NCBI GenBank assembly: GCA_036556025.1
Contig: DATBKD010000046.1
Span: 4,718 to 68,717, forward strand
Reading direction: 5' to 3'
Length of the DNA stretch: 64,000 nt
Origin: Gemmatimonadales bacterium
GTDB lineage: Bacteria > Gemmatimonadota > Gemmatimonadetes > Gemmatimonadales > GWC2-71-9
The notes under the pieces are model-generated. The model had not been told where the DNA came from and ran no database searches. It saw nothing but the letters and a program-made list of their open reading frames with translations. Both the position numbers and the translations under genes were made by a program. Below are positions 9,168 to 21,848 of this stretch, piece by piece (within the stretch, counting starts at the first letter, position 1; each line of letters begins with the position of its first letter).

Positions 9168-10240
9168 GTACCCGGGTGGTCCACGTCGCATCCGGTCGCG
9201 AGTGGCGGGGAGGCCAGCGGCAGGTCTGGCTGCTCGCCCGAGAGCTGGAACGACTCGGCGGAGTCGCACAGGTGGTGGTGACCGGCGGTGGAACCGAGCT
9301 CGCCCGCCGGCTCCGGTCCGACGGCGTGACTGTCCGTGAGGCGCCCTGGAGCATGGGGCTCGACCCCCGTGTCTGTGGGGCCATTCTTGCCGCGCTTCGC
9401 GGATCGGGCGCGCTGCTCCACGCTCACGACGGCCATGCCATCATCCTGGCCGGGCTCTGTGCCTCACTTGCGGGTTGTCCTCTTGTCGCCACGCGACGAG
9501 TCGCATTCCACCTCCGACATCGAGGCTACTGGGCCCGCGCCACGCGAGTGATCGCCGTCTCCCAGGCGGTGGCCTCGGTGCTGGAGCAGGACGGAATCCC
9601 GCCCGAACGGATACGCGTCGTTCACTCCGGAATCGCGCTCGAGATAGCCCTCGCCGCAAAACCTCTGGGCATTCGAGCTCGATTGGGGCTTCCACCTGAC
9701 GCGGGGATCGCGGCAAGCGTGGGATCGCTCGAGCCGGAGAAGGATCATCCCACCCTCTTTCGCGCCGCCAAGATATTGGAAGCGCGTCATCCTCAGCTCC
9801 ATTGGGTCGTCGCAGGCGCGGGGCGCGAGCAACCGGCCCTGGAGCGTCTCCGAGAGGACTTGGGACTGCATCACCGAGTCCATCTGCTCGGCCAAGTGGA
9901 CGAACCGATGGGCCTCATTGTCGATGCCAATGTTTTCGTCATGAGCTCCAGGGACGAGGGGCTGGGGACTTCGGTGCTGGATGCGATGGCGCTTGGCACT
10001 CCGGTTGCTTCTACCTCGGCAGGAGGCGTCCCGGAAATGCTGACCGATGGCTCGGGGCTGCTGGTTTCGCCGGGGGATTCTCGGGCACTTGCGGGCGCGG
10101 TGTCTCAGATCCTGGACGATTCGGCCCTGCGTCGATCACTTATAGAGAACGCCTGGACGGCGGTCCGGCGGTTCAGCGCCGACCGCATGGCCGGGGAAGT
10201 AAGAAACGTGTATCGTTCCTGCGCCCATTTCCTTGACTGA
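9164..10240 (+). CDS. Glycosyltransferase family 4 (GT-B)
   Basis: 358 aa. C-terminal half carries the EGLGTSVLDAMALGTPVAST (E-x7-E-like) GT4 signature. The GTG start overlaps the kinase stop (GTGA). Confidence 0.85.
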   Translation: MSTRVVHVASGREWRGGQRQVWLLARELERLGGVAQVVVTGGGTELARRLRSDGVTVREAPWSMGLDPRVCGAILAALRGSGALLHAHDGHAIILAGLCASLAGCPLVATRRVAFHLRHRGYWARATRVIAVSQAVASVLEQDGIPPERIRVVHSGIALEIALAAKPLGIRARLGLPPDAGIAASVGSLEPEKDHPTLFRAAKILEARHPQLHWVVAGAGREQPALERLREDLGLHHRVHLLGQVDEPMGLIVDANVFVMSSRDEGLGTSVLDAMALGTPVASTSAGGVPEMLTDGSGLLVSPGDSRALAGAVSQILDDSALRRSLIENAWTAVRRFSADRMAGEVRNVYRSCAHFLD

Positions 10241-10242
10241 CC

Positions 10243-11040
10243 ATGATTTACGTTTGCATACCAAGCTACAACGAGGCAGCAACGGTGGGTCTTCTGCTCT
10301 GGAAGATCCGCCAGGTGTTCGCCGGATTTCCTCGGGAGTACCAACTGCTCCTGCTGGATGACGGGTCCACCGACGCGACGTCGGAAGTGCTGGAGCCCTA
10401 TGTCCGAGTTCTGCCGCTCACGCTGCTGCGTCATGAGGTCCGGCAAGGCTATGCCGCCTCGGTCGAGGCGTTGCTCCGCAAGGCGGTCGAGCTTACCGAT
10501 CGGCCCAAGCGCGATGCGGCAATCGTGATGCACGCCGATTTCGCCCACAATCCTCAGGCCATCCCCGATCTGGTTCGACGAATCGAAAGCGGAGCCGATG
10601 TCGTCGTGGCCGAGGGCCGTATCGAGGGCCAGCAGTCGTGGCCGCACCGCATGCTGCGGCGCTTCGCCCCGCTGTTTCTTCGGGGGATTGTAGCAGTTCC
10701 CGGGGTGACGGACCTGGTCTCGGGGTTCGCCATCTTCCGGCTGGTCGCGCTGAGGAATGCACTCCGGAGTCAGAACGGTGCGCTGCTGGTCACCGATGGG
10801 CTCGCCGCCAATGCCGAGCTGTACTGGCGGGCAGGGCGATACGCGCGTCGAGTCGAAGCCATCCCAGTAGTCGAGCGGCACGATCTTCGGGGCCGCGGCA
10901 CCCGCCTGCAGCCCTGGCCCACGGCCATGCAGCTCTGGCGGGCCCGACGGCTCCTCCGGAATACGCCGATACCGCCCGTGACCGCCGATGCCTCTGCCCG
11001 GCGGGAGAGCGAACGGGAAGCCGAGGCGGTATCCTCGTGA
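10243..11040 (+). CDS. Glycosyltransferase family 2
   Basis: N-terminal IPSYNEAATV...LLLLDDGSTDAT (GT2 DxD-type fold signature). Starts 2 nt after the GT4 stop. Confidence 0.85.
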   Translation: MIYVCIPSYNEAATVGLLLWKIRQVFAGFPREYQLLLLDDGSTDATSEVLEPYVRVLPLTLLRHEVRQGYAASVEALLRKAVELTDRPKRDAAIVMHADFAHNPQAIPDLVRRIESGADVVVAEGRIEGQQSWPHRMLRRFAPLFLRGIVAVPGVTDLVSGFAIFRLVALRNALRSQNGALLVTDGLAANAELYWRAGRYARRVEAIPVVERHDLRGRGTRLQPWPTAMQLWRARRLLRNTPIPPVTADASARRESEREAEAVSS

Positions 11041-11786
11041 GCCTGCTCGCCCTGGTACTGGCCCTCTTTCAAGGCAGTGCCCCGCCGGCCCCGGCGCCGG
11101 CTTACCCGTTTGGCGTCGGGGAGACCCTGACCTATAGCGCGAAGCTGGGCATGCTCACCCTGGGCTCCGGAACGCTGGAAGTGGCAGGCATCGAGTCACT
11201 GCGCGGCGAAGAGACCTTTCGGTTCCGCTTTCGGCTTCAGGGGAGGACCGTCTTCTTCAGTCTGGATGACGTGCTCGAGTCCTGGGTCGGGACCAAGGAT
11301 TTCGCGTCCCGCCGGTTTCTTCAGAACTTCGTAGAGAACGACAAGACCCGGCGCAAGCTGTACGAGATCTACCCCGACTCGGGGTTTTTCCGCGAGAGCG
11401 GCCGCCCCTCGCCAGAGCCCTCGCCTCCGGATCCGCTGGACGACGCGGCGTTCTTCTACTTCGTGCGAATTACGCCGCTCGAAGTGGGCAAGAAGTACTC
11501 CTTCGACCGGTACTTCAAGAAGAAAATGAATCCGGTCAACATCGAGGTGACCAAGAGGGAGAAGATGGAGCTGCCCGACGGCACGGAGATCGATTGCCTG
11601 GTGCTTCATCCGGTGATCGAGACCAAGGGTATGTTCTCCAAGCGCTCGGATACCCGGATCTGGCTCACCGACGATGTGCGCCGCTTGCCGGTGCAGATTC
11701 GAAGCAAATTCAACTTCGGGACCATCACGCTCCGCCTCAAGGAAATGGTGCTACCCGGCGCACCCACCCCGACTCCGGGCACCTGA
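11037..11786 (+). CDS. DUF3108 domain-containing exported protein
   Basis: GTG at 11037 overlaps the GT2 stop. Signal-like N-terminus SLLALVLALF, then FGVGETLTYSAKLGMLTLGSGTLEV, typical of DUF3108. The 133 codons upstream in the track ORF overlap GT2 out of frame and are Arg/Ala/Pro-rich. Confidence 0.7.
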   Translation: MSLLALVLALFQGSAPPAPAPAYPFGVGETLTYSAKLGMLTLGSGTLEVAGIESLRGEETFRFRFRLQGRTVFFSLDDVLESWVGTKDFASRRFLQNFVENDKTRRKLYEIYPDSGFFRESGRPSPEPSPPDPLDDAAFFYFVRITPLEVGKKYSFDRYFKKKMNPVNIEVTKREKMELPDGTEIDCLVLHPVIETKGMFSKRSDTRIWLTDDVRRLPVQIRSKFNFGTITLRLKEMVLPGAPTPTPGT

Positions 11787-14337: not shown

Positions 14338-14384
14338 CTGACAGTTATCAGCTGACAGCTGACAGCTTACTTCTTACTTCTGGT
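14338..14384. repeat. Tandem heptamers (GACAGCT-type x4, then TACTTCT x2)
   Basis: Read directly: gacagtt atcagct gacagct gacagct tacttct tacttct. The CAGCTG core relates it to the AGCTGWT family. Confidence 0.7.
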
Positions 14385-14513
14385 GTACGGCGTCCTCTCG
14401 CCAGTTGGATCCATCCCCGCGCCCCATACATCCGTTCGCTCCCGGCCGGCGTAGCCGAGGTCACAAGGGCAGTGCATCACCAACTGCCCACCACCTCACT
14501 CGCTAGGAGACCC

Positions 14514-15269
14514 ATGGCCATGAACGCCAGACCGACTTCCCGCCGGCGAGCGCTCGCCGCAGGGCTGGTTGTCCTCGCGGGGGCCGCCACTGTCACCGGC
14601 CTCGTCCTTGGATCCGATCACCAGGACACACCCTTCGTCGAGCTCAACCCCAAGTCCGACCTCACCGATGTCTATGCCTTTCCTGGATCTGCGCCTGGTC
14701 GCATCGTCCTCGTCATGGACACCAGAGGGTTCCTCACGCCGGCCGGTGCGCAGGATCCGGACCAGGGCTCGTTCGATCACAATCTGCTCTATCAGTTCAA
14801 GGTCGATAACAACGGGGACGCAAAAGAGGACAAGGTCATCCAGGTCAGCTTCACCGGAGAGGGTACCGCGCAGCAGGTCGAGGTGCGAGGCCCGATAGCG
14901 CCGCCGGTCCAGGGCGCGATGAACAACGAAATCTCCGACGCGACCCCGACGGTCAGCGGAGCACTCAACACCCTTCTGGGCAGCCCCAGCGACATTCAGG
15001 TCTTCGCTGGTCCCCGCGACGATCCGTTCTATATCGATCTCGAAGCCGCATTCTGTATCCTGCCGGACCGCAAGCCGGTGGGCGGAGCGCTCTCCCAGCC
15101 CTGCGCCCTCCACCCCAATCCGTCGGGCTCGATTTTCTACTTCCGCAATCCCGGCGTGAACTACGTCAACGGGTTCAACGTCAATGCCATCATCGTCGAG
15201 CTGCCCAGCTCGACGCTGGAAAACGGCTCGCCCGGCAAGCTTGGCCTTTGGGGCACCATCAGTCAGTGA
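14514..15269 (+). CDS. DUF4331 family protein, N-terminal-half homologue (exported)
   Basis: ATG at 14514 preceded by AGGAGA. Twin-arginine-like signal TSRRRALAAGL. Hallmark SDHQDTP...DLTDVYAF and AGPRDDPFYID motifs of DUF4331. Confidence 0.75.
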   Translation: MAMNARPTSRRRALAAGLVVLAGAATVTGLVLGSDHQDTPFVELNPKSDLTDVYAFPGSAPGRIVLVMDTRGFLTPAGAQDPDQGSFDHNLLYQFKVDNNGDAKEDKVIQVSFTGEGTAQQVEVRGPIAPPVQGAMNNEISDATPTVSGALNTLLGSPSDIQVFAGPRDDPFYIDLEAAFCILPDRKPVGGALSQPCALHPNPSGSIFYFRNPGVNYVNGFNVNAIIVELPSSTLENGSPGKLGLWGTISQ

Positions 15270-15300
15270 TCACCCACGACACGAACGAGAGGAACCGACC

Positions 15301-15879
15301 ATGCAGCTCAGCATCTTTGCCCGCGGGGCACGCCGCCTGGCACTCGCGTCCGCGGTCGTGGCGGTGAGCCTGACGACCGCCTGCAGTGACGACCACAACG
15401 ACGGGACCGGGCCGACGACGCCCAGGATGTTCAATCAGCTTCAGCGCCTCGGCAATCCGCTGGTGAGCGAAGTTCTTCTGGCCAAGCGGAGCCATCCCAC
15501 TCACGGCAGCATCGGCCCGGACCAGGACGCCAGTCTCGTCGCCCCGGAAGTGGTGGACTTTCTGACCACGGTTGCGGGCCGCGACCCCGCCTATATCAGC
15601 GCGATCGCGCCGGCCTTGATCCCTGATATGCTGATCGTGGACACGAGCAAGGATCCGGCATCCTCGCCTGTGGGCTGGCTCACCTGGCTGCCCCAACTGG
15701 GTGGCGGGTACGGGGGACGGCAGCTTCAGGACGACGTGGTGGATCTGGCGCTCACAGCCGTGTTCGGCAGTGCCCTCGGTGACGCCGCCCACGCGACGCC
15801 GGAGCTCACCACCGACAATGTCAGCTTCGACTCGCCCAACGTCACCAGCACGTTCCCCTATCTCGCGTCGCCGAACTAA
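15301..15879 (+). CDS. DUF4331 family protein, C-terminal-half homologue (lipoprotein)
   Basis: ATG at 15301 preceded by GAGAGGA. Lipobox SLTTAC. RLGNPLVSEVLL, GGRQLQDDVVDLAL and terminal FPYLASPN resemble the C-terminal part of full-length DUF4331 proteins. Confidence 0.7.
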   Translation: MQLSIFARGARRLALASAVVAVSLTTACSDDHNDGTGPTTPRMFNQLQRLGNPLVSEVLLAKRSHPTHGSIGPDQDASLVAPEVVDFLTTVAGRDPAYISAIAPALIPDMLIVDTSKDPASSPVGWLTWLPQLGGGYGGRQLQDDVVDLALTAVFGSALGDAAHATPELTTDNVSFDSPNVTSTFPYLASPN

Positions 15880-15944
15880 GTCGCGAGCGTCTCCGGCGGC
15901 ACGGACAGGGCCGCCGGAGCACACCTGTCACCGAGGGGTCAACT

Positions 15945-17249
15945 ATGCGAAAGCTGGCGTGGTGCGCCGCCGGAGCCGCTCTGGGACTCATCATCTGGGC
16001 AGCCGGCGCGGCGGCTGATCGTCCCGCACAGCCAGCCGGGTCCAATCCTCGGCCAAGGCTGAGTGAGACCCAGATCCGCAGTCTGGACATCGCGTTCTAC
16101 GCGAAGCGGATCGAGCGCGACAGCCTGAGCGCCCGGGACTTCACCCAGCTGGCGGCCCTGTACCTCCAACGCGCGCGGGAGACCGCTGACAATCAGGATC
16201 TGGTGCGGGCCGAAGAGATGGCGCGCCACTCGCTCCGGCTGCGGACCAGTCGAAACGGCGCCGCGTTCGGCGTGCTGGCGTCCAGCCTCCTGGCGCAGCA
16301 CCGCTTCGCCGAAGCGCTGGAAGCGGCGGAAGCGTTGGTGGAGTACGACTCGACCTCGATCAGCGCGCGAGGCCTGCTGGGCGAGACCCAGATGGAGCTG
16401 GGCCGTTATGGCGACGCCCGCCGAAGCCTGGGCGCGCTCGCCAGCTACCGGCGAGATCTGAGTGTCGCCCCGCGCTTGGCGCGCTGGGAGGAGCTGCAGG
16501 GACACCCCGAGGCAGCCCGGCAGCTCCTGCGAGAAGCGCGGGACGACGCCGCGCGGCAGCACGGCATGCCCCGAGAGCAGCTGGCCTGGTTCCACCTTCG
16601 CCTCGGAGACCTCGCCTTGCGCAATGGGCACGCCGGTGAGGCCGAACGCGAGCTCCACGACGGACTGAAGATCTCTCCCCGCGACTATCGCCTTCTGGGA
16701 ACCATGGCCCGGCTGGAGGCAGCGCAGCACCGCTGGGACAGCGCCATCCGGTACGGTGAAGAGGCCATCGGGCAGGCCCTCGATCCGGCAACCCTCGGAT
16801 TGATCGGAGATGCCTACGCTGCCTTGGGCGACAGCGCCAAGTCGCGGGAATACTCGCACGCCATGGAGACCGCGGTGCTCCATCAACCGGGGGCCTTTCA
16901 CAGAGCGTGGAGTCTCTACCTGCTGGACCATGGCCGCGACGTTCCCGCGGTGCTGGCCAAGGTCCGAGCGGAGCTGGAAACCCGGCGCGACATCTACGGG
17001 TACGACCTGCTCGCGTGGGCACTTCATCGCTCGGGTCGGGATGCCGAGGCGAGAGCGGCCATGATGCGGGCACTCACGCTGGGCACCAGGGACGCCATGC
17101 TGTTCTATCACGCCGGGATGATCGAGCACGCTCTGGGTAACGAGGGCTCCGCCCGGCAGGACTTGGCTCAGGCCCTGACCATCAATCCGATCTGGCACCC
17201 CACTCAGCGGGACGAGGCCCGGGCGCTGCTGGATTCTCTCGCACCCTGA
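15945..17249 (+). CDS. Tetratricopeptide-repeat protein (exported)
   Basis: Signal peptide, then repeated about 34-aa Ala/Leu/Tyr-patterned helices (for example ...GRYGDARRSLGAL..., ...GDSAKSREYSHAME..., ...GRDAEARAAMMRALTL...). Confidence 0.75.
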   Translation: MRKLAWCAAGAALGLIIWAAGAAADRPAQPAGSNPRPRLSETQIRSLDIAFYAKRIERDSLSARDFTQLAALYLQRARETADNQDLVRAEEMARHSLRLRTSRNGAAFGVLASSLLAQHRFAEALEAAEALVEYDSTSISARGLLGETQMELGRYGDARRSLGALASYRRDLSVAPRLARWEELQGHPEAARQLLREARDDAARQHGMPREQLAWFHLRLGDLALRNGHAGEAERELHDGLKISPRDYRLLGTMARLEAAQHRWDSAIRYGEEAIGQALDPATLGLIGDAYAALGDSAKSREYSHAMETAVLHQPGAFHRAWSLYLLDHGRDVPAVLAKVRAELETRRDIYGYDLLAWALHRSGRDAEARAAMMRALTLGTRDAMLFYHAGMIEHALGNEGSARQDLAQALTINPIWHPTQRDEARALLDSLAP

Positions 17250-17259
17250 GGACACCGAC

Positions 17260-17865
17260 GTGTCAGCGCTTGCGACCTTCGTCCATCTGGGGTTTCGCCA
17301 TATCGTCACTTTCGCGGCAATGGATCACATTCTGTTTCTGCTCGCGCTCGCGGCGATTTATCGAGGGAGCGATTGGCGAGACAGTCTCTGGGTGATCACG
17401 GCTTTCACCATCGGGCACTCCGTGACCCTCGCGCTGGCGGTGAGCGGCACCGTGCGCCTCCCCACGCCACTGATCGAATTCCTCATTCCCCTCACCATCG
17501 TGGCGACCGGAGCCGAAAACATCGTGGTCCGCAACCGATCCCAGGCACCGCTCCGTGGACGTTATCGCTCGATCTTTGCCGGCGTCTTTGGCCTGGTGCA
17601 CGGCGCCGGGTTCGCCAACTATCTCCAGAGTCTGTTCGTGGGCTCGATCGCCCTGCCTCTCTTCGGCTTCAACCTGGGGATCGAGCTGGGTCAGCTGCTC
17701 GTGCTGGCGGCTTCCGGACTGGCGCTCGCTGGATTGGATCGGCTGCTCGCAGCCGCATGCGCGCAAGGAGGTATACCGACGCCCTACCGCCTCCGGGTGG
17801 TAACAGTCTCTCTGGTGGTAGTGGGCGTGGCGACGCAGATGGCCGCGGCCCGGCGGCCATGGTAA
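17260..17865 (+). CDS. HupE/UreJ family membrane protein
   Basis: GTG start. MDHILFLLALAA and FTIGHSVTLA motifs. About six hydrophobic segments over 201 aa. Confidence 0.8.
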   Translation: MSALATFVHLGFRHIVTFAAMDHILFLLALAAIYRGSDWRDSLWVITAFTIGHSVTLALAVSGTVRLPTPLIEFLIPLTIVATGAENIVVRNRSQAPLRGRYRSIFAGVFGLVHGAGFANYLQSLFVGSIALPLFGFNLGIELGQLLVLAASGLALAGLDRLLAAACAQGGIPTPYRLRVVTVSLVVVGVATQMAAARRPW

Positions 17866-18351
17866 ATGCGGGTTCCGCTCCTGCTCCTCACGCTCCTGTT
17901 GCCCGCGGGCGCAGCGGCTGAGACTGGGGTACCGGCTCGGCAGCATCCCATGCATACGGCCGTAGTCGAGATGAGTTATCAGCCCGCCAGCGGCCTCGTC
18001 GCGATTCAGGTCCGGGCCTTCCAGGATGACTTGAGGACGGCGGTCGCCTTCTCTCCCAACGGAGTGCCGGCCGACTCCGCCTTGGCCCGCTACGTTCGGA
18101 GCGCAGTGCATGTCATTGACCGCGTCGGTCGCGCGCTGCCACTCCACTGGGAAGGCGCGGAGCAGGCCGGCGATGCGATCGTGGTTCGCCTCACGGCTCC
18201 GGCGCCGGAGGGATTGGAGGGCGCACAGGTGTTGAGCGCCCTGCTCTGTGAGCGCTTCGAGGACCAGGTCAACATCGTTCGCGCAGCCTATGGCGGGCGA
18301 ACCACGACTCTGCTTTTCACCCGCGGCGACCGCGCCAAGACGCTTCCATGA
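17866..18351 (+). CDS. DUF6702-like exported protein
   Basis: ATG directly abuts the HupE stop. Signal peptide, then HPMHTAVVEMSYQPASGLVAIQVRAFQDDL, which matches my recollection of the DUF6702 N-terminal pattern. That family usually sits next to HupE/UreJ genes. Confidence 0.6.
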   Translation: MRVPLLLLTLLLPAGAAAETGVPARQHPMHTAVVEMSYQPASGLVAIQVRAFQDDLRTAVAFSPNGVPADSALARYVRSAVHVIDRVGRALPLHWEGAEQAGDAIVVRLTAPAPEGLEGAQVLSALLCERFEDQVNIVRAAYGGRTTTLLFTRGDRAKTLP

Positions 18352-18404: not shown

Positions 18405-19007
18405 ATGCCGAGCCAGACGATTCCGCCTGCGTCCGCCGATCGCGACCTCGTAGCGCAGGCCGCGGCCGGCGAGGAGAAGGCGATTGCCGTTCTCTACGAT
18501 CGGTACGGTGAAGTGCTGTATGCCGTCGCGTATCGCATCGTAGGACAGCGGGCGGATGCGGAAGAGGTCGTCATCGAGGCCTTTGCCCAGGCCTGGCGTG
18601 AGGCGCCGCGCTTCGAGGCGGCGCGGGGTTCCGTTGCGGGTTGGCTCACCACTATCGCGCGGAGCCGGGCATTGGATCTGGTACGTGCCAGGGTCCGGCG
18701 GGAGCGGATGGCGGCCTCGGCCGCAGCCGATCAGCCGGACGTCTCCCCGGCCATGGGAGACTGGCGAGGGGATCCTGGCGACTCACTGGAGCAGACCGAG
18801 CGCCGGCACCAGGTGCAGCTCGCGCTCGAGATTCTCTCTCCTCCACAGCGCAAGGCGATCGAGCTGGCGTACTTTGAGGGCCTGTCCCATTCGGAAATTG
18901 CCGAGCGCCTGCAGGAGCCACTTGGCACGATCAAGACCCGGGTCCGACTGGGTATGCAGAAGCTCAGGGAGTGTCTGCGGCCGTTCTACTTCGAGCGTGG
19001 CACATGA
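18405..19007 (+). CDS. ECF-type sigma-70 family RNA polymerase sigma factor
   Basis: Start at the ATG at 18405. Region 2 is YDRYGEVLYAVAYRIVGQRADAEEVVIEAFAQAW. Region 4 is LSPPQRKAIELAYFEGLSHSEIAERLQEPLGTIKTRVRLGMQKLR. Confidence 0.9.
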   Translation: MPSQTIPPASADRDLVAQAAAGEEKAIAVLYDRYGEVLYAVAYRIVGQRADAEEVVIEAFAQAWREAPRFEAARGSVAGWLTTIARSRALDLVRARVRRERMAASAAADQPDVSPAMGDWRGDPGDSLEQTERRHQVQLALEILSPPQRKAIELAYFEGLSHSEIAERLQEPLGTIKTRVRLGMQKLRECLRPFYFERGT

Positions 19008-19807
19008 GCCATTCCGACCAGGAATCGCCCCAGGATCTCGCTGCCGCGTACGCGCTGGGAGCGCTGGAGCCGGGAGAGGCGCGGCGCTTCGAAGCGTTCC
19101 TCGCCGGGTCACCCGAGGCCCAGCGCGAAGTCGCCGAGTTTCGCGAGGTGGCGGCGTTGCTGGCTCTGGGAGAGGCGGATACCGCCCCGGGTGCCAATCT
19201 GCGCGACCGGGTGCTCGCCCGGGTAGGCGGCGAAAAGACCCGTGCTCTACCGGTTGCGGAACCGACCGCCCGGCGGCGGATTCCATGGTTGATGTGGGGC
19301 GCGCTCGCGGCGTCCCTCGCGCTGGCAGTGGGATTGGCAGCCGAGGTGCTTTCGCAGCGGCAGGATCTGGCCGATCTCAAGGGGGAGGTTGCCAATCGAG
19401 ACCAGGTCCTGGCGGAGCGCCTCCAGCAACTCAGGGCCCGCGAGGCCACGCTCAATGCCCTCATGGAACCGGGTGTCGAGCTGTACCAGCTCTCCGCCAG
19501 CGGAGACCCCGAACCGGGCATTCAGCTTTTCTGGAACCGGGAGAAGAACGTGGCGATCGTACACGGCTTCCGACTCAAGCCAGTCCCGTCCGGACATGCC
19601 TACCAACTTTGGTTCATCGAGGACGGCAAGCCGGTCCCCTCGGTGACCTTCAAGCCCGAACCTTCCGGGCACGCCAAGGTCGAGGGCGTGACCGTCCCCA
19701 CCGCAGGAGAATTGAGCGCCGCGGCCATAACCGTGGAGCCGGAGGGCGGTTCGCCTCAGCCGACCTCTCCCATCCTCCTGGTAGGGTCGCTCCAGAAAAA
19801 GTCGTGA
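19004..19807 (+). CDS. Anti-sigma factor, RskA (anti-sigma-K) type
   Basis: ATGA overlap with the sigma stop. N-terminal AAAYALGALEPGEARRFEAFL, a single TM segment (WLMWGALAASLALAVGLAA) and a C-terminal YQLWFIEDGKPVPS...ITVEPEGGSPQPTSP domain. Confidence 0.8.
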   Translation: MSHSDQESPQDLAAAYALGALEPGEARRFEAFLAGSPEAQREVAEFREVAALLALGEADTAPGANLRDRVLARVGGEKTRALPVAEPTARRRIPWLMWGALAASLALAVGLAAEVLSQRQDLADLKGEVANRDQVLAERLQQLRAREATLNALMEPGVELYQLSASGDPEPGIQLFWNREKNVAIVHGFRLKPVPSGHAYQLWFIEDGKPVPSVTFKPEPSGHAKVEGVTVPTAGELSAAAITVEPEGGSPQPTSPILLVGSLQKKS

Positions 19808-20661
19808 TCGGCTGGCACAGATCCGCGGTCCTGCTGGCAGGCTTCGCCGCCGGTGTCGTCGCCCCGCTCGCGTCTCAGGTTCCGAGTGACCTCTCCCGGG
19901 AACGGGCTGCCTTCGCCAACTGGCTCCGTTCCGCCCCGACCTCACCCTTCGCCGCGCTGGCACGCGAGCCCATCGGCCAGGGACTCGGCTTGGGCCCAAC
20001 CGGTGCGAGCATCCCCCTTCAAGGCCTGGAGCCGCAGCGCGTGGTCGAGCGGGACGGGCTGGTGACGCTGGAATCCCCACGGGGGCGTCGGTCCGTACCG
20101 CGCGGCAGGCCCATTCACCTAGGCAAGTACGCCATCGTGGCGGACGGGCCGGCAGATCGCGGCGTTCTTACGGTGTACGGCGCACCGGCGGTGCGAACCA
20201 CGCCGCAATACTTCCCCTATCAGCAGAGCCTGGTCTATGAGGGCGGACTGAGGCCGCCGGAGCATCCGGGGCAGGTGCGGATTCTGTCGCTGGAGGGGAC
20301 GGAGGTCGATGCCAACGAAGCGGGCACCGTTGAGATTCCGGTCGACGACACCAAGGCCCGCCTGCGGGTGCTCCGGATCCCGCTGGGACCGGGAGAGGAA
20401 TCCGATCTGCAGATCTTTTTTCGCGACGGGACCAATGGTAGCGGCACCTACCCCGCCGGCCGCTTCGTGTCGCTCTTGCCCCTGGGAGGCGGACGGTACC
20501 GGCTGGACTTCAACCGCGCCCGCAATCCCTTCTGCGCCTACAACCCAACCTACCCCTGCCCCGCGCCCTGGCGAGGCAACACCATTGCGTCGCCGATCCG
20601 CGCCGGAGAGCGCTATGCCGGCGGCGGCCTCGACGCTGCTCCGGCCGAGGGCAAGAAGTGA
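19804..20661 (+). CDS. DUF1684 domain-containing exported protein
   Basis: GTGA overlap with the anti-sigma stop. Signal peptide. FFRDGTNGSGTYPAGRF...LDFNRARNPFCAYNPTYPCPAPWRGN..IRAGE is the DUF1684 signature. The upstream 416 codons of track ORF 18556..20661 are a shadow frame over the sigma and anti-sigma genes. Confidence 0.8.
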   Translation: MIGWHRSAVLLAGFAAGVVAPLASQVPSDLSRERAAFANWLRSAPTSPFAALAREPIGQGLGLGPTGASIPLQGLEPQRVVERDGLVTLESPRGRRSVPRGRPIHLGKYAIVADGPADRGVLTVYGAPAVRTTPQYFPYQQSLVYEGGLRPPEHPGQVRILSLEGTEVDANEAGTVEIPVDDTKARLRVLRIPLGPGEESDLQIFFRDGTNGSGTYPAGRFVSLLPLGGGRYRLDFNRARNPFCAYNPTYPCPAPWRGNTIASPIRAGERYAGGGLDAAPAEGKK

Positions 20662-21848
20662 GGCCCTCCGCTCTGCTGTTGCTCCTGGTAGTGACGGGGG
20701 CGTCTCCATCGCCCGCCGGGCGTTGGCGGGCGGCGCTCGAGCTCGCGGGGGGCGAGCTTCGCTTCGGGCTCACGATCAATGCCGAGGGCAGCGGCTGGCG
20801 AGGCGAGCTGTGCAACGGATCTCGGTGCGAGGCGCTCTCCGCCGTTCGCATTGAGCAGGACAGCGCCGTCTTCGAGATGGCCGACTACGACGCGGTGATC
20901 ACCGCCAAGCTTCGAGGCGATTCGCTTTCCGGAGAATACCGCAACGTCGGCATCCGGGGGCCGCGGGTCATCCCCTTTCGCGCGGCGCGGGGACACTGGC
21001 CTGTGAGCCGCGCGCCCGCCGCGCTGCTGGGGCGATGGGACGCCACCTTCCTGCAGGACTGGGGCACCAGCCCGCGGGTGCTGGAATTTCGGAATGGCAA
21101 AGCCGGCCTGGAAGGTACCATCATCTCCAATACCGGCGACTATGGTCACTTTGCCGGCGGGGCTGCGGGAGACAGCTTCGCCATCGCGCACTTTGACGGC
21201 TCATTCGTGTATCTGCTCGACGGTGCCCTGCACGGCGACACCCTTCGGGGCGTGTTTCACGCCGGCCTTCGTACCGAAGTCCGATGGATCGCAGTCCGAA
21301 GCGCCGGTCGTCCGCACTTGAAGTCGCCTTCCGAGGTGACCACGGCTGACACGACAGAGCCATTCCACTTCGAGTTTCCAGCCCTCGATGGTCGGACCAT
21401 CAATGAGGGCGATCCGCGTTTCCGCGGCAAAGTGGTGCTGGTGGACATCTTCGGGAGCTGGTGCCCCACGTGTCACGACGCCGCTCCGGAGCTCGTCCGG
21501 CTCTACCGGCGCTATCACGCCCGCGGTCTCGGGATGGTCGGCCTGGCCTATGAGGTCACCGGCGACACGGCCATTGACGCCCGACTGGTCCGGCGCTTTC
21601 GCGACAAGTTTGGAATCCCCTTTCCTCTGCTCCTGGCGGGAGTCAGCGACGTGGAGTCGGCCGCGGCGACCCTGCCCCAGCTGCACGGCTTCACCGCCTT
21701 CCCCACGACTATTCTGTTGGGTCGAGATGGTAAGATCCGGCGAGTGCACGCCGGCTTTTACGGGCCGGCGACCGGGGCCCAGCATGCCCGGTTGATCCAG
21801 CAATGGCAGCGGGAGATCGAGGCACTCCTGGCGGAACGGCCCGGATGA
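20658..21848 (+). CDS. TlpA/redoxin-family thiol-disulfide oxidoreductase with an N-terminal beta-rich domain
   Basis: GTGA overlap with the upstream stop. Signal peptide. C-terminal thioredoxin fold with VLVDIFGSWCPTCHDAAPEL (WCxxC). Confidence 0.8.
   Translation: MRPSALLLLLVVTGASPSPAGRWRAALELAGGELRFGLTINAEGSGWRGELCNGSRCEALSAVRIEQDSAVFEMADYDAVITAKLRGDSLSGEYRNVGIRGPRVIPFRAARGHWPVSRAPAALLGRWDATFLQDWGTSPRVLEFRNGKAGLEGTIISNTGDYGHFAGGAAGDSFAIAHFDGSFVYLLDGALHGDTLRGVFHAGLRTEVRWIAVRSAGRPHLKSPSEVTTADTTEPFHFEFPALDGRTINEGDPRFRGKVVLVDIFGSWCPTCHDAAPELVRLYRRYHARGLGMVGLAYEVTGDTAIDARLVRRFRDKFGIPFPLLLAGVSDVESAAATLPQLHGFTAFPTTILLGRDGKIRRVHAGFYGPATGAQHARLIQQWQREIEALLAERPG

Follow-up and report, generated by a model that had tools for sequence, protein, structure and literature searches.

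A split DUF4331 protein and its TPR partner in a putative metal-capture cassette of Gemmatimonadota

A stretch of 64,000 nucleotides from the genome of a Gemmatimonadales bacterium (GenBank assembly GCA_036556025.1, contig DATBKD010000046.1, positions 4,718 to 68,717; hereafter the window) carries nine co-directional genes on the plus strand between 14.5 and 21.9 kb. The first five form the cassette considered here: A and B encode the N- and C-terminal halves of a DUF4331 domain, C a tetratricopeptide repeat (TPR) protein, D a HupE/UreJ-2 type membrane permease and E an exported DUF6702 protein. The division of DUF4331 over two genes is genuine and conserved, each half having its own ribosome-binding site and signal, and the five genes probably constitute an extracytoplasmic cassette for the capture and import of a transition metal, most likely Ni(II). 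Nickel is the preferred candidate, being the metal common to Ni/Co transporters and to the Cu/Ni chemistry of amino-terminal Cu(II)- and Ni(II)-binding (ATCUN) motifs. The original prediction, a reading of the sequence alone, had suggested periplasmic metal acquisition, with which two observations agree, namely that transporters of four unrelated Ni/Co families are encoded beside the DUF4331-TPR pair and that DUF4331 has a conserved X-X-His start. DUF6702 and HupE/UreJ-2 have already been described for metal binding, while the DUF4331-TPR core is unstudied in the papers found, and full-text literature searches returned no paper mentioning DUF4331.

A DUF4331 domain divided over two genes

When compared with the Pfam profile of DUF4331 (PF14224; 421 positions, gathering score 27 bits), gene A matches positions 1–96 and about 160–246 (E = 1.6e-29, 103.9 bits) and gene B positions 249–421 (E = 5.4e-17, 62.6 bits). 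The domain is divided at profile position ~247, A and B jointly covering the profile and neither of them carrying all 421 positions on one polypeptide. Gene B lies in the +1 frame relative to gene A, and a Shine-Dalgarno-like GAGAGGAA at 15287–15294 is located 6–7 nt 5' of its ATG. The same three-piece Pfam pattern is present in the window's genome, in 12 of 24 same-genus genomes and in one genome of another family. The order DAO-A-B-TPR-HupE-DUF6702-ECF-anti-sigma-DUF1684-redoxin (ECF, extracytoplasmic function sigma factor) is kept, as far as the contig reaches, in six same-genus genomes with protein identities of 55–85%, and three further, more divergent split A-B(-TPR) modules were found, one of them in another family. 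Orthologues keep the stop, the spacer with its ribosome-binding site, and a new signal peptide and lipobox at the A-B junction. Furthermore, more than 100 clusters of DUF4331 N-halves of ~250 aa are found in metagenome databases; the family as a whole, with ~2000 matches at E ≤ 0.001 in a library clustered at 50%, is abundant in soil metagenomes.

A lipobox was seen in every split C-half that could be read, that is at 7 Gemmatimonadota loci and ~16 loci of Armatimonadota and Eremiobacterota. That of gene B (SL-TTA-C28, followed by the linker SDDHNDG) was accepted under the pattern [LVI][ASTVI][GAS]C, is atypical at position -3 and predicts lipidation at Cys28, whereas canonical A-A-G-C or L-A-G-C is found in orthologues and in other phyla. 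In the split pairs of Armatimonadota and Eremiobacterota the N-half ends with ...WxTTS(K) and the C-half opens with L-A-G-C and a Gly/Ser-rich linker. The two separate genes of the original prediction, each with its own Shine-Dalgarno sequence and signal peptide, and the lipobox on the C-half (LTTAC) are thus borne out. Its premise that DUF4331 is normally a single protein is only half right, since three or more phyla show the design of one soluble and one lipoprotein half. In a tree of the N-terminal part, all members of the clade to which the window protein belongs are split (45 rows, support 100), so that the split form is the rule throughout this clade, while Cyanobacteria are all unsplit and Armatimonadota and Eremiobacterota are mixed. 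Parsimony counts five changes between the split and unsplit states, at least two of which are forced by well-supported branches; since the tree is unrooted, fission and re-fusion are indistinguishable on it.

It is hardly credible that the split reflects an assembly or sequencing frameshift, or the decay of a single DUF4331 gene into a pseudogene. In favor of such an error, a few database proteins of 409–454 aa (P0003, P0032, P0074) seem to cover both halves. However, these proteins cross Arg-rich out-of-frame stretches and retain an internal signal peptide and lipobox, indicating that the "full-length" relatives are gene-calling artefacts. Moreover, orthologues and other phyla share the stop, the spacer with its ribosome-binding site, the new signal peptide and the lipobox, which contradicts the frameshift at the A-B junction that the original prediction had itself raised, and invariant residues are maintained in both halves. 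The close homologues P0003, P0032, P0053 and P0074 were accordingly set aside as frame-shifted gene calls with the internal signal peptide still inside. P0076 (417 aa, on a single contig) is placed among split relatives, may be an assembly artefact and was not used for modelling.

Predicted fold, N-terminal tip and TPR partner

The DUF4331 fold was modelled with AlphaFold2 (AF2) on the mature form of an unsplit homologue from Fimbriimonadaceae, with A and B among the 117 rows of the input alignment. The model has high confidence (predicted local distance difference test score, pLDDT, 93.3; predicted template modelling score, pTM, 0.92) and consists of a β-sandwich (residues 1–229) packed on a helical part (residues 232–377). 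A Foldseek search of the PDB with this model returned no match at E ≤ 1e-3, with TM scores below 0.3. The last strand of gene A, KLGLWGTISQ, aligns to model strand 208–219, and the first conserved segment of gene B, RMFNQLQRLG, to strand 222–229, so that the genes appear to be cut at a hairpin turn inside one fold. According to the model, A and B are therefore two halves of a single DUF4331 fold. With the cut at this position, A and B would be expected to form an obligate complex held together by paired strands, and the halves probably reassemble. In the family alignment (A3), invariant residues are present in both halves and are mostly Asp, Glu, Arg and Gln, the only invariant histidines being that of the N-terminal tip and His65 of B.

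The signal peptide of gene A is predicted to end with ...GLVLG|SDHQDTP, giving a mature N-terminus of Ser34-Asp35-His36, in which His is third and residue 2 is not Pro. All four defined residues of the S-D-H-x-D tip (Ser, Asp, His and the following Asp) are invariant in the alignment, and [S/A]-D-H stands exactly 15 residues before DxxDVYxF in 328 of 351 DUF4331 members; cyanobacterial members have this tip as well. The tip is preceded by Ala or Gly at -1 (324/347) and by Ala, Val or Ser at -3, as at a signal-peptidase site. An N-terminus of the form NH2-X-X-His is the ATCUN motif, which binds Cu(II) and Ni(II); the Asp-Ala-His of serum albumin is an example of it. Mature DUF4331 would thus begin with Ser/Ala-Asp-His, a putative ATCUN-type tip that shares with known motifs the His at position 3 and a non-Pro residue at position 2. 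Unlike ATCUN peptides, the tip runs on into a conserved x-Asp-x-Pro and Asp-rich motifs, and may therefore belong to a larger structured site; in the model the first residues lack structure and have lower confidence. Removal of the initial methionine would also expose X-X-His in two paralogues that have no signal peptide and start with M-SDH and M-SNH, one of which is encoded in the window's genome. The original prediction had further called the signal of gene A (SRRRAL) Tat-like. Only 84 of 232 close homologues and 10 of 112 representatives have the twin-arginine pair, which is replaced for example by RPR, and export by the twin-arginine translocation (Tat) pathway was rejected as a conserved feature of gene A.

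The paralogue in the window's genome is a second DUF4331 gene (L005; contig C73, 248–1378, minus strand), unsplit, 376 aa long and without a signal peptide, starting with M-SDHVDGP. It is flanked by a 456-aa open reading frame (ORF) with a sub-threshold match to DyP_N (25.9 bits against a cut-off of 27.5), and a similar ORF begins on its other side. Several DUF4331 modules also coexist in genome G020: a full cassette, a second A-B pair without TPR beside rpoB/rpoC-sized genes (L026; contig C2, ~518 kb), and a signal-less unsplit DUF4331 beside a response regulator (L028).

Gene C encodes an N-terminal hydrophobic helix (signal or anchor), a linker and ~11 TPR repeats, which AF2 models as 23 helices with a pLDDT of 94; against the PDB, Foldseek matched this model to generic TPR superhelices only. 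By contrast to a generic TPR protein, the family has invariant residues (E78, H118, E150, W214, R319 and R346), which argue for a dedicated family. Homologues of gene C, with identities of up to 37.6% over 383 aa, are located within four genes of DUF4331 at 57 of 72 scored loci, usually directly downstream of it, and span four phyla. Judged by its conservation and neighbourhood, gene C is a TPR partner dedicated to DUF4331.

Transporter neighbourhoods and the putative route of the metal

Related loci were collected by a scan with a 6-sequence alignment as query, restricted to one genome per species. The 80 loci obtained belong to Armatimonadota, Eremiobacterota, Cyanobacteria and Planctomycetota; their ORFs were clustered and 72 loci were scored. 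A signature of a Ni/Co-type transporter was found within four genes of DUF4331 at 47 of the 72 loci (33/35 in cyanobacteria, 8/20 in Armatimonadota and 5/16 in Eremiobacterota), related genomes among them not being independent samples. By Pfam, four types were distinguished: a NicO-like protein that has both a long His-rich loop and an ectodomain with N-terminal His (A|HPLGNF...); a CbiM-PDGLE-CbiQ fusion accompanied by an ATP-binding cassette (ABC) ATPase, likely CbiO; an N-terminal-His ectodomain fused to HupE_UreJ_2, found in Armatimonas downstream of a split DUF4331-TPR; and a NicO protein of the NiCoT type. The cassette of the window, in which HupE_UreJ_2 is bare and DUF6702 is encoded by a gene of its own, adds a fifth variant to these four. 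Metal trafficking by the DUF4331-TPR pair is most strongly suggested by the fact that the pair stays constant while the transporter family beside it is repeatedly swapped. The co-occurrence on which the original prediction had made its case depend is therefore found both as synteny within the genus and as DUF4331-TPR-transporter neighbourhoods in four phyla.

The last two genes of the cassette resemble systems that have been characterized recently. HupE/UreJ-2 permeases with fused metal-capture domains that begin with His1, the "anglerases" Ang-1 and Ang-2, were described in 2025 (PMC12537917; Nat Commun 2025; PDB 9GCE), and the DUF6702 protein of P. aeruginosa (PaDUF6702) was shown to be a "metal sequesterase" that binds Ni2+ at picomolar and Co2+ and Cu2+ at nanomolar concentrations via His1 after signal cleavage; His1 is present in 65% of the DUF6702 family members (PMC12537917). 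Ni, Co and Cu are bound by these anglerase and DUF6702 proteins, which are not enzymatically active (PMC12537917), so that the statement of the original prediction that no function is known for any of the soluble components has been overtaken. As in these systems, gene E encodes an exported β-sandwich protein with a His at or near the mature N-terminus, paired with a HupE/UreJ-2 permease. By contrast, D does not combine an N-terminal-His ectodomain and a permease on one polypeptide; the permease gene comes first and is followed by the His-bearing ectodomain as a separate gene. Furthermore, the conserved core of the cassette is formed by DUF4331 and its TPR partner, neither of which is mentioned in that study (PMC12537917). 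In four orthologues of gene E, HP[MT]HT directly follows the signal peptide. At the spacing of PaDUF6702 His28 and His32, counted from His27 without an alignment, gene E has Asp54 and Thr58, which hints at a different ligand set.

Gene D is 65–81% identical to its syntenic orthologues and keeps H14 and D22-H23. It shares the small multi-helix architecture and the first-helix His/Asp residues of the HupE/UreJ nickel permeases, of which Rhizobium leguminosarum HupE is one (Brito et al., 2010, as cited in PMC12537917), but belongs to the sister family PF13795 rather than PF04955 and has no hydrogenase or urease genes adjacent to it. A comparison can also be drawn with the NikMNQO/CbiMNQO importers, since in Fimbriimonadaceae DUF4331-TPR lies directly upstream of the CbiM-PDGLE-CbiQ fusion and its ATPase. 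NikK/NikL and CbiN, extracytoplasmic or membrane accessories encoded beside Ni/Co importers, are said to aid metal capture. DUF4331-TPR, encoded beside such an importer, would likewise be an extracytoplasmic or membrane accessory, but it has no sequence or fold relationship to these proteins, accompanies four transporter families and is far larger (~380 + ~430 aa).

Taken together, these features suggest the following route. After export of protein A, cleavage of its signal peptide would expose a free Ser-Asp-His tip of the ATCUN type, while B would be exported separately and lipid-anchored via Cys28. The first β-strand of B would then pair with the last strand of A, so that the compact DUF4331 globule is rebuilt on a membrane tether, and the membrane-tethered TPR superhelix would keep the A-B complex close to the permease. 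The metal could pass from the DUF4331 tip to the His-tipped DUF6702 and from there through HupE/UreJ-2 into the cytoplasm, with transcription probably starting from an ECF-type promoter (ATCC-N16-CGTA) and probably being controlled by the SigK/RskA-like pair encoded downstream.

Several points weigh against import of nickel by the cassette. We infer metal binding by DUF4331, the assembly of A with B and the direction of transport alike. NicO/RcnA-type proteins with His-rich loops can be exporters, as is E. coli RcnA. The X-X-His start could merely reflect a domain that begins right after the signal peptide, and the many invariant Asp and Glu residues would equally suit a Ca2+ or structural site. 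In gene E of the window, His27 follows the best A-x-A site (AAA|E) at a distance of 8 residues, so that a free His tip is not assured there. The window's genome encodes a [NiFe]-hydrogenase, which speaks for a demand for nickel, but the link between this enzyme and the cassette is weak (8/13 genus genomes with the cassette against 4/12 without), and a search for urease gave weak amidohydrolase-like matches only and no urease. Likewise, a search of Rfam with the surroundings of the operon and with seven related loci revealed neither a metal riboswitch nor any other RNA family. The distribution in the genus, on the other hand, speaks for the cassette: of 41 genomes, 11 have both DUF4331 and DUF6702 and 26 have neither, and at least two of the four discordant cases are explained by truncated contigs or incomplete genomes.

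Two other functions have to be weighed against nickel import, copper handling being the main rival. Cu(II) is bound by ATCUN sites no less well than Ni(II), and the same cassette might handle copper, the tip taking up Cu(II) and DUF6702 and HupE/UreJ-2 moving it on to supply cuproenzymes or for detoxification, with the downstream TlpA-like redoxin serving the maturation of copper sites. Indeed, Ang-1 and Ang-2, the two characterized HupE/UreJ-2 ectodomains, prefer copper, DUF6702 also binds it at nanomolar concentrations (PMC12537917), and the redoxin is kept in the downstream synteny. We nevertheless regard copper, together with this role of the redoxin, as unlikely, since the CbiMQO, NiCoT and NicO-type neighbours in other phyla belong to Ni/Co and not to copper systems, PaDUF6702 binds Ni ~1000-fold tighter than Cu (PMC12537917), and neither CopC, PCuAC, CopA nor a multicopper oxidase is among the recurrent neighbours of DUF4331. 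Still more improbable is that DUF4331 and TPR form an envelope pair unrelated to metal transport, of Ca2+-stabilized structural, adhesive or enzymatic nature, which stands beside transporters through shared regulation or by chance. The prevalence of Asp, Glu, Arg and Gln among the invariant residues, with two invariant histidines only, would fit such a pair, a fold with no solved relative leaves room for an enzymatic function, and no transporter is found within four genes of DUF4331 in L026, L031 and L032 and at 25 of the 72 loci. However, chance is hard to credit when four unrelated Ni/Co-type families stand beside the pair in different phyla, as at the cyanobacterial loci above, when several of these transporters bear N-terminal-His ectodomains of their own, and when the X-X-His tip is retained even in signal-less paralogues.

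If nickel capture is accepted, a broader proposal can be put forward, which is tentative and in our view possible rather than probable: DUF4331 and TPR may represent a new, phylum-spanning class of nickel-capture system that combines an unseen fold with a Ser-Asp-His grip and hands the metal to whichever Ni/Co permease the lineage possesses, and several lineages may have come, more than once, to build it in two pieces, with soluble and lipoprotein halves that complement each other by strand pairing after separate export. The periplasmic collection of nickel and cobalt is known for few systems, namely NikA, the NikK/L accessory proteins and the anglerases of 2025. If correct, the proposal would supply annotations for thousands of genes of the Gemmatimonadota, Armatimonadota, Eremiobacterota and Cyanobacteria, and the constant TPR partner, the X-X-His tip and the neighbours make it a concrete and cheaply testable hypothesis. 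Moreover, the recurrent cut into an exported and a lipoprotein half, placed by the model at a hairpin inside one domain, would provide a natural example of protein complementation after export.

Two arrangements outside the Gemmatimonadota were noted in passing. In L052 (Eremiobacterota, 9173–11251), a NicO domain of the NiCoT type (276 aa) and a complete DUF4331 with an internal signal peptide share one frame with no stop between them, representing either two same-frame genes or a fusion of permease and DUF4331. In Nostocales (L070, L071, L076 and others), DUF4331-TPR-NicO is followed by a ~244-aa exported protein with a PEP-CTERM-like end and no Pfam match, conserved in 19 loci, and then, in convergent orientation, by a ~735-aa protein that has a P-loop (Walker A) close to its N-terminus, may be a regulator and is conserved in 23 loci.

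Gene layout, candidate promoter and downstream genes

The coordinates of the cassette and its surroundings are collected in Table 1. The family assignments of the original prediction are upheld by the Pfam scores, which for the permease are E = 3.4e-43 and 147.5 bits over positions 1–146 of the 156-position HupE_UreJ_2 profile (gathering score 24.5 bits) and for DUF6702 E = 1.9e-20 and 73.8 bits (gathering score 24 bits). The gene positions and 31-nt spacing that it gave are correct as well, all five genes lying on the plus strand, and the motifs it quoted are all present in the sequence. NCBIfam added nothing further for A, B, D or E, and sequence searches of the PDB with A and E gave no match. 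Gene A has an alternative start at 14520, which is the one chosen in the database copy. The genes are closely spaced, with gaps of 65 nt between B and C, 10 nt between C and D and 0 nt between D and E, where, as noted originally, the start of E abuts the stop of D.

Table 1. Features of the DUF4331 cassette and the genes downstream of it; positions are those of the window.
Feature	Position	Strand	Basis
Putative promoter of the ECF type, ATCC-N16-CGTA, 61 nt before the start codon of A	14430–14453	+	motif conservation
Gene A, DUF4331 N-terminal half (β-sandwich part), exported	14514–15269	+	PF14224 DUF4331
A-B spacer, 31 nt, with Shine-Dalgarno-like sequence	15270–15300	+	read off the sequence
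Gene B, DUF4331 C-terminal half (one β-strand and helical part), predicted lipoprotein	15301–15879	+	PF14224
Gene C, TPR partner of DUF4331	15945–17249	+	several Pfam TPR families
Gene D, HupE/UreJ-2 type membrane permease without own ectodomain, 201 aa	17260–17865	+	PF13795
Gene E, exported DUF6702 protein, invariant HPMHT (His27, His30)	17866–18351	+	PF20420
Gene F, ECF sigma factor (SigK-like)	start 18348 or 18405	+	Pfam, NCBIfam
Gene G, RskA-type anti-sigma factor	18971–19807	+	RskA N- and C-terminal domains, Pfam/NCBIfam
DUF1684 gene	19804–20661	+	Pfam/NCBIfam
TlpA-like redoxin	20658–21848	+	Pfam/NCBIfam

Upstream of gene A, a simple scan for sigma-70 promoters found nothing. The motif ATCC-N16-CGTA in this region may be an ECF-type promoter, its spacing and CGT-type -10 element being typical of such promoters. 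The refined form of the motif is found a single time at each of 10 Gemmatimonadota loci (10/10), on the correct strand and 5' of the DUF4331 N-half, a count that is partly circular because the pattern was derived from the same sequences. Among the ten are paralogous modules with upstream regions that cannot be aligned apart from this motif. In a looser form, the pattern has 8 matches in the window against 1.76 expected.

The order of sigma factor, anti-sigma factor, DUF1684 and redoxin downstream of the cassette is kept in four same-genus genomes with 54–76% identity. For the sigma factor, the start at 18348 would form an ATGA overlap with the DUF6702 stop, whereas orthologue alignments that begin near residue 26 favor the start at 18405 and a gap of 53 nt. 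The sigma pair probably regulates A to E. It resembles the SigK/RskA pairs (ECF18/19), in that F scores best with SigK-like models, G is of the RskA type and both are encoded with exported target proteins (PMC7509140). The pair differs from SigK/RskA in that its putative targets are metal-handling genes rather than proteins of the MPT70/MPT83 type; the link from sigma factor to motif is one that we infer, and the SigK/RskA study gives no explicit promoter consensus with which ATCC-N16-CGTA could be compared (PMC7509140).

A second match, ATCC-N17-CGTA, lies on the minus strand at 14386–14410, 20 nt upstream of the plus-strand motif, and faces the DAO gene. The intergenic spacer between DAO and A also contains, at 14340–14367, a short heptamer array of CAGCTGA units. 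The equivalent spacers of L025, L027 and L029 hold other tandem arrays of short units, with AGCTCAT/AGCTCAC in L025 and CTTCCGTC-like units in L029. Since the arrays differ at the same place, the spacer repeats appear to turn over quickly, while the promoter-like motif downstream of them is kept.

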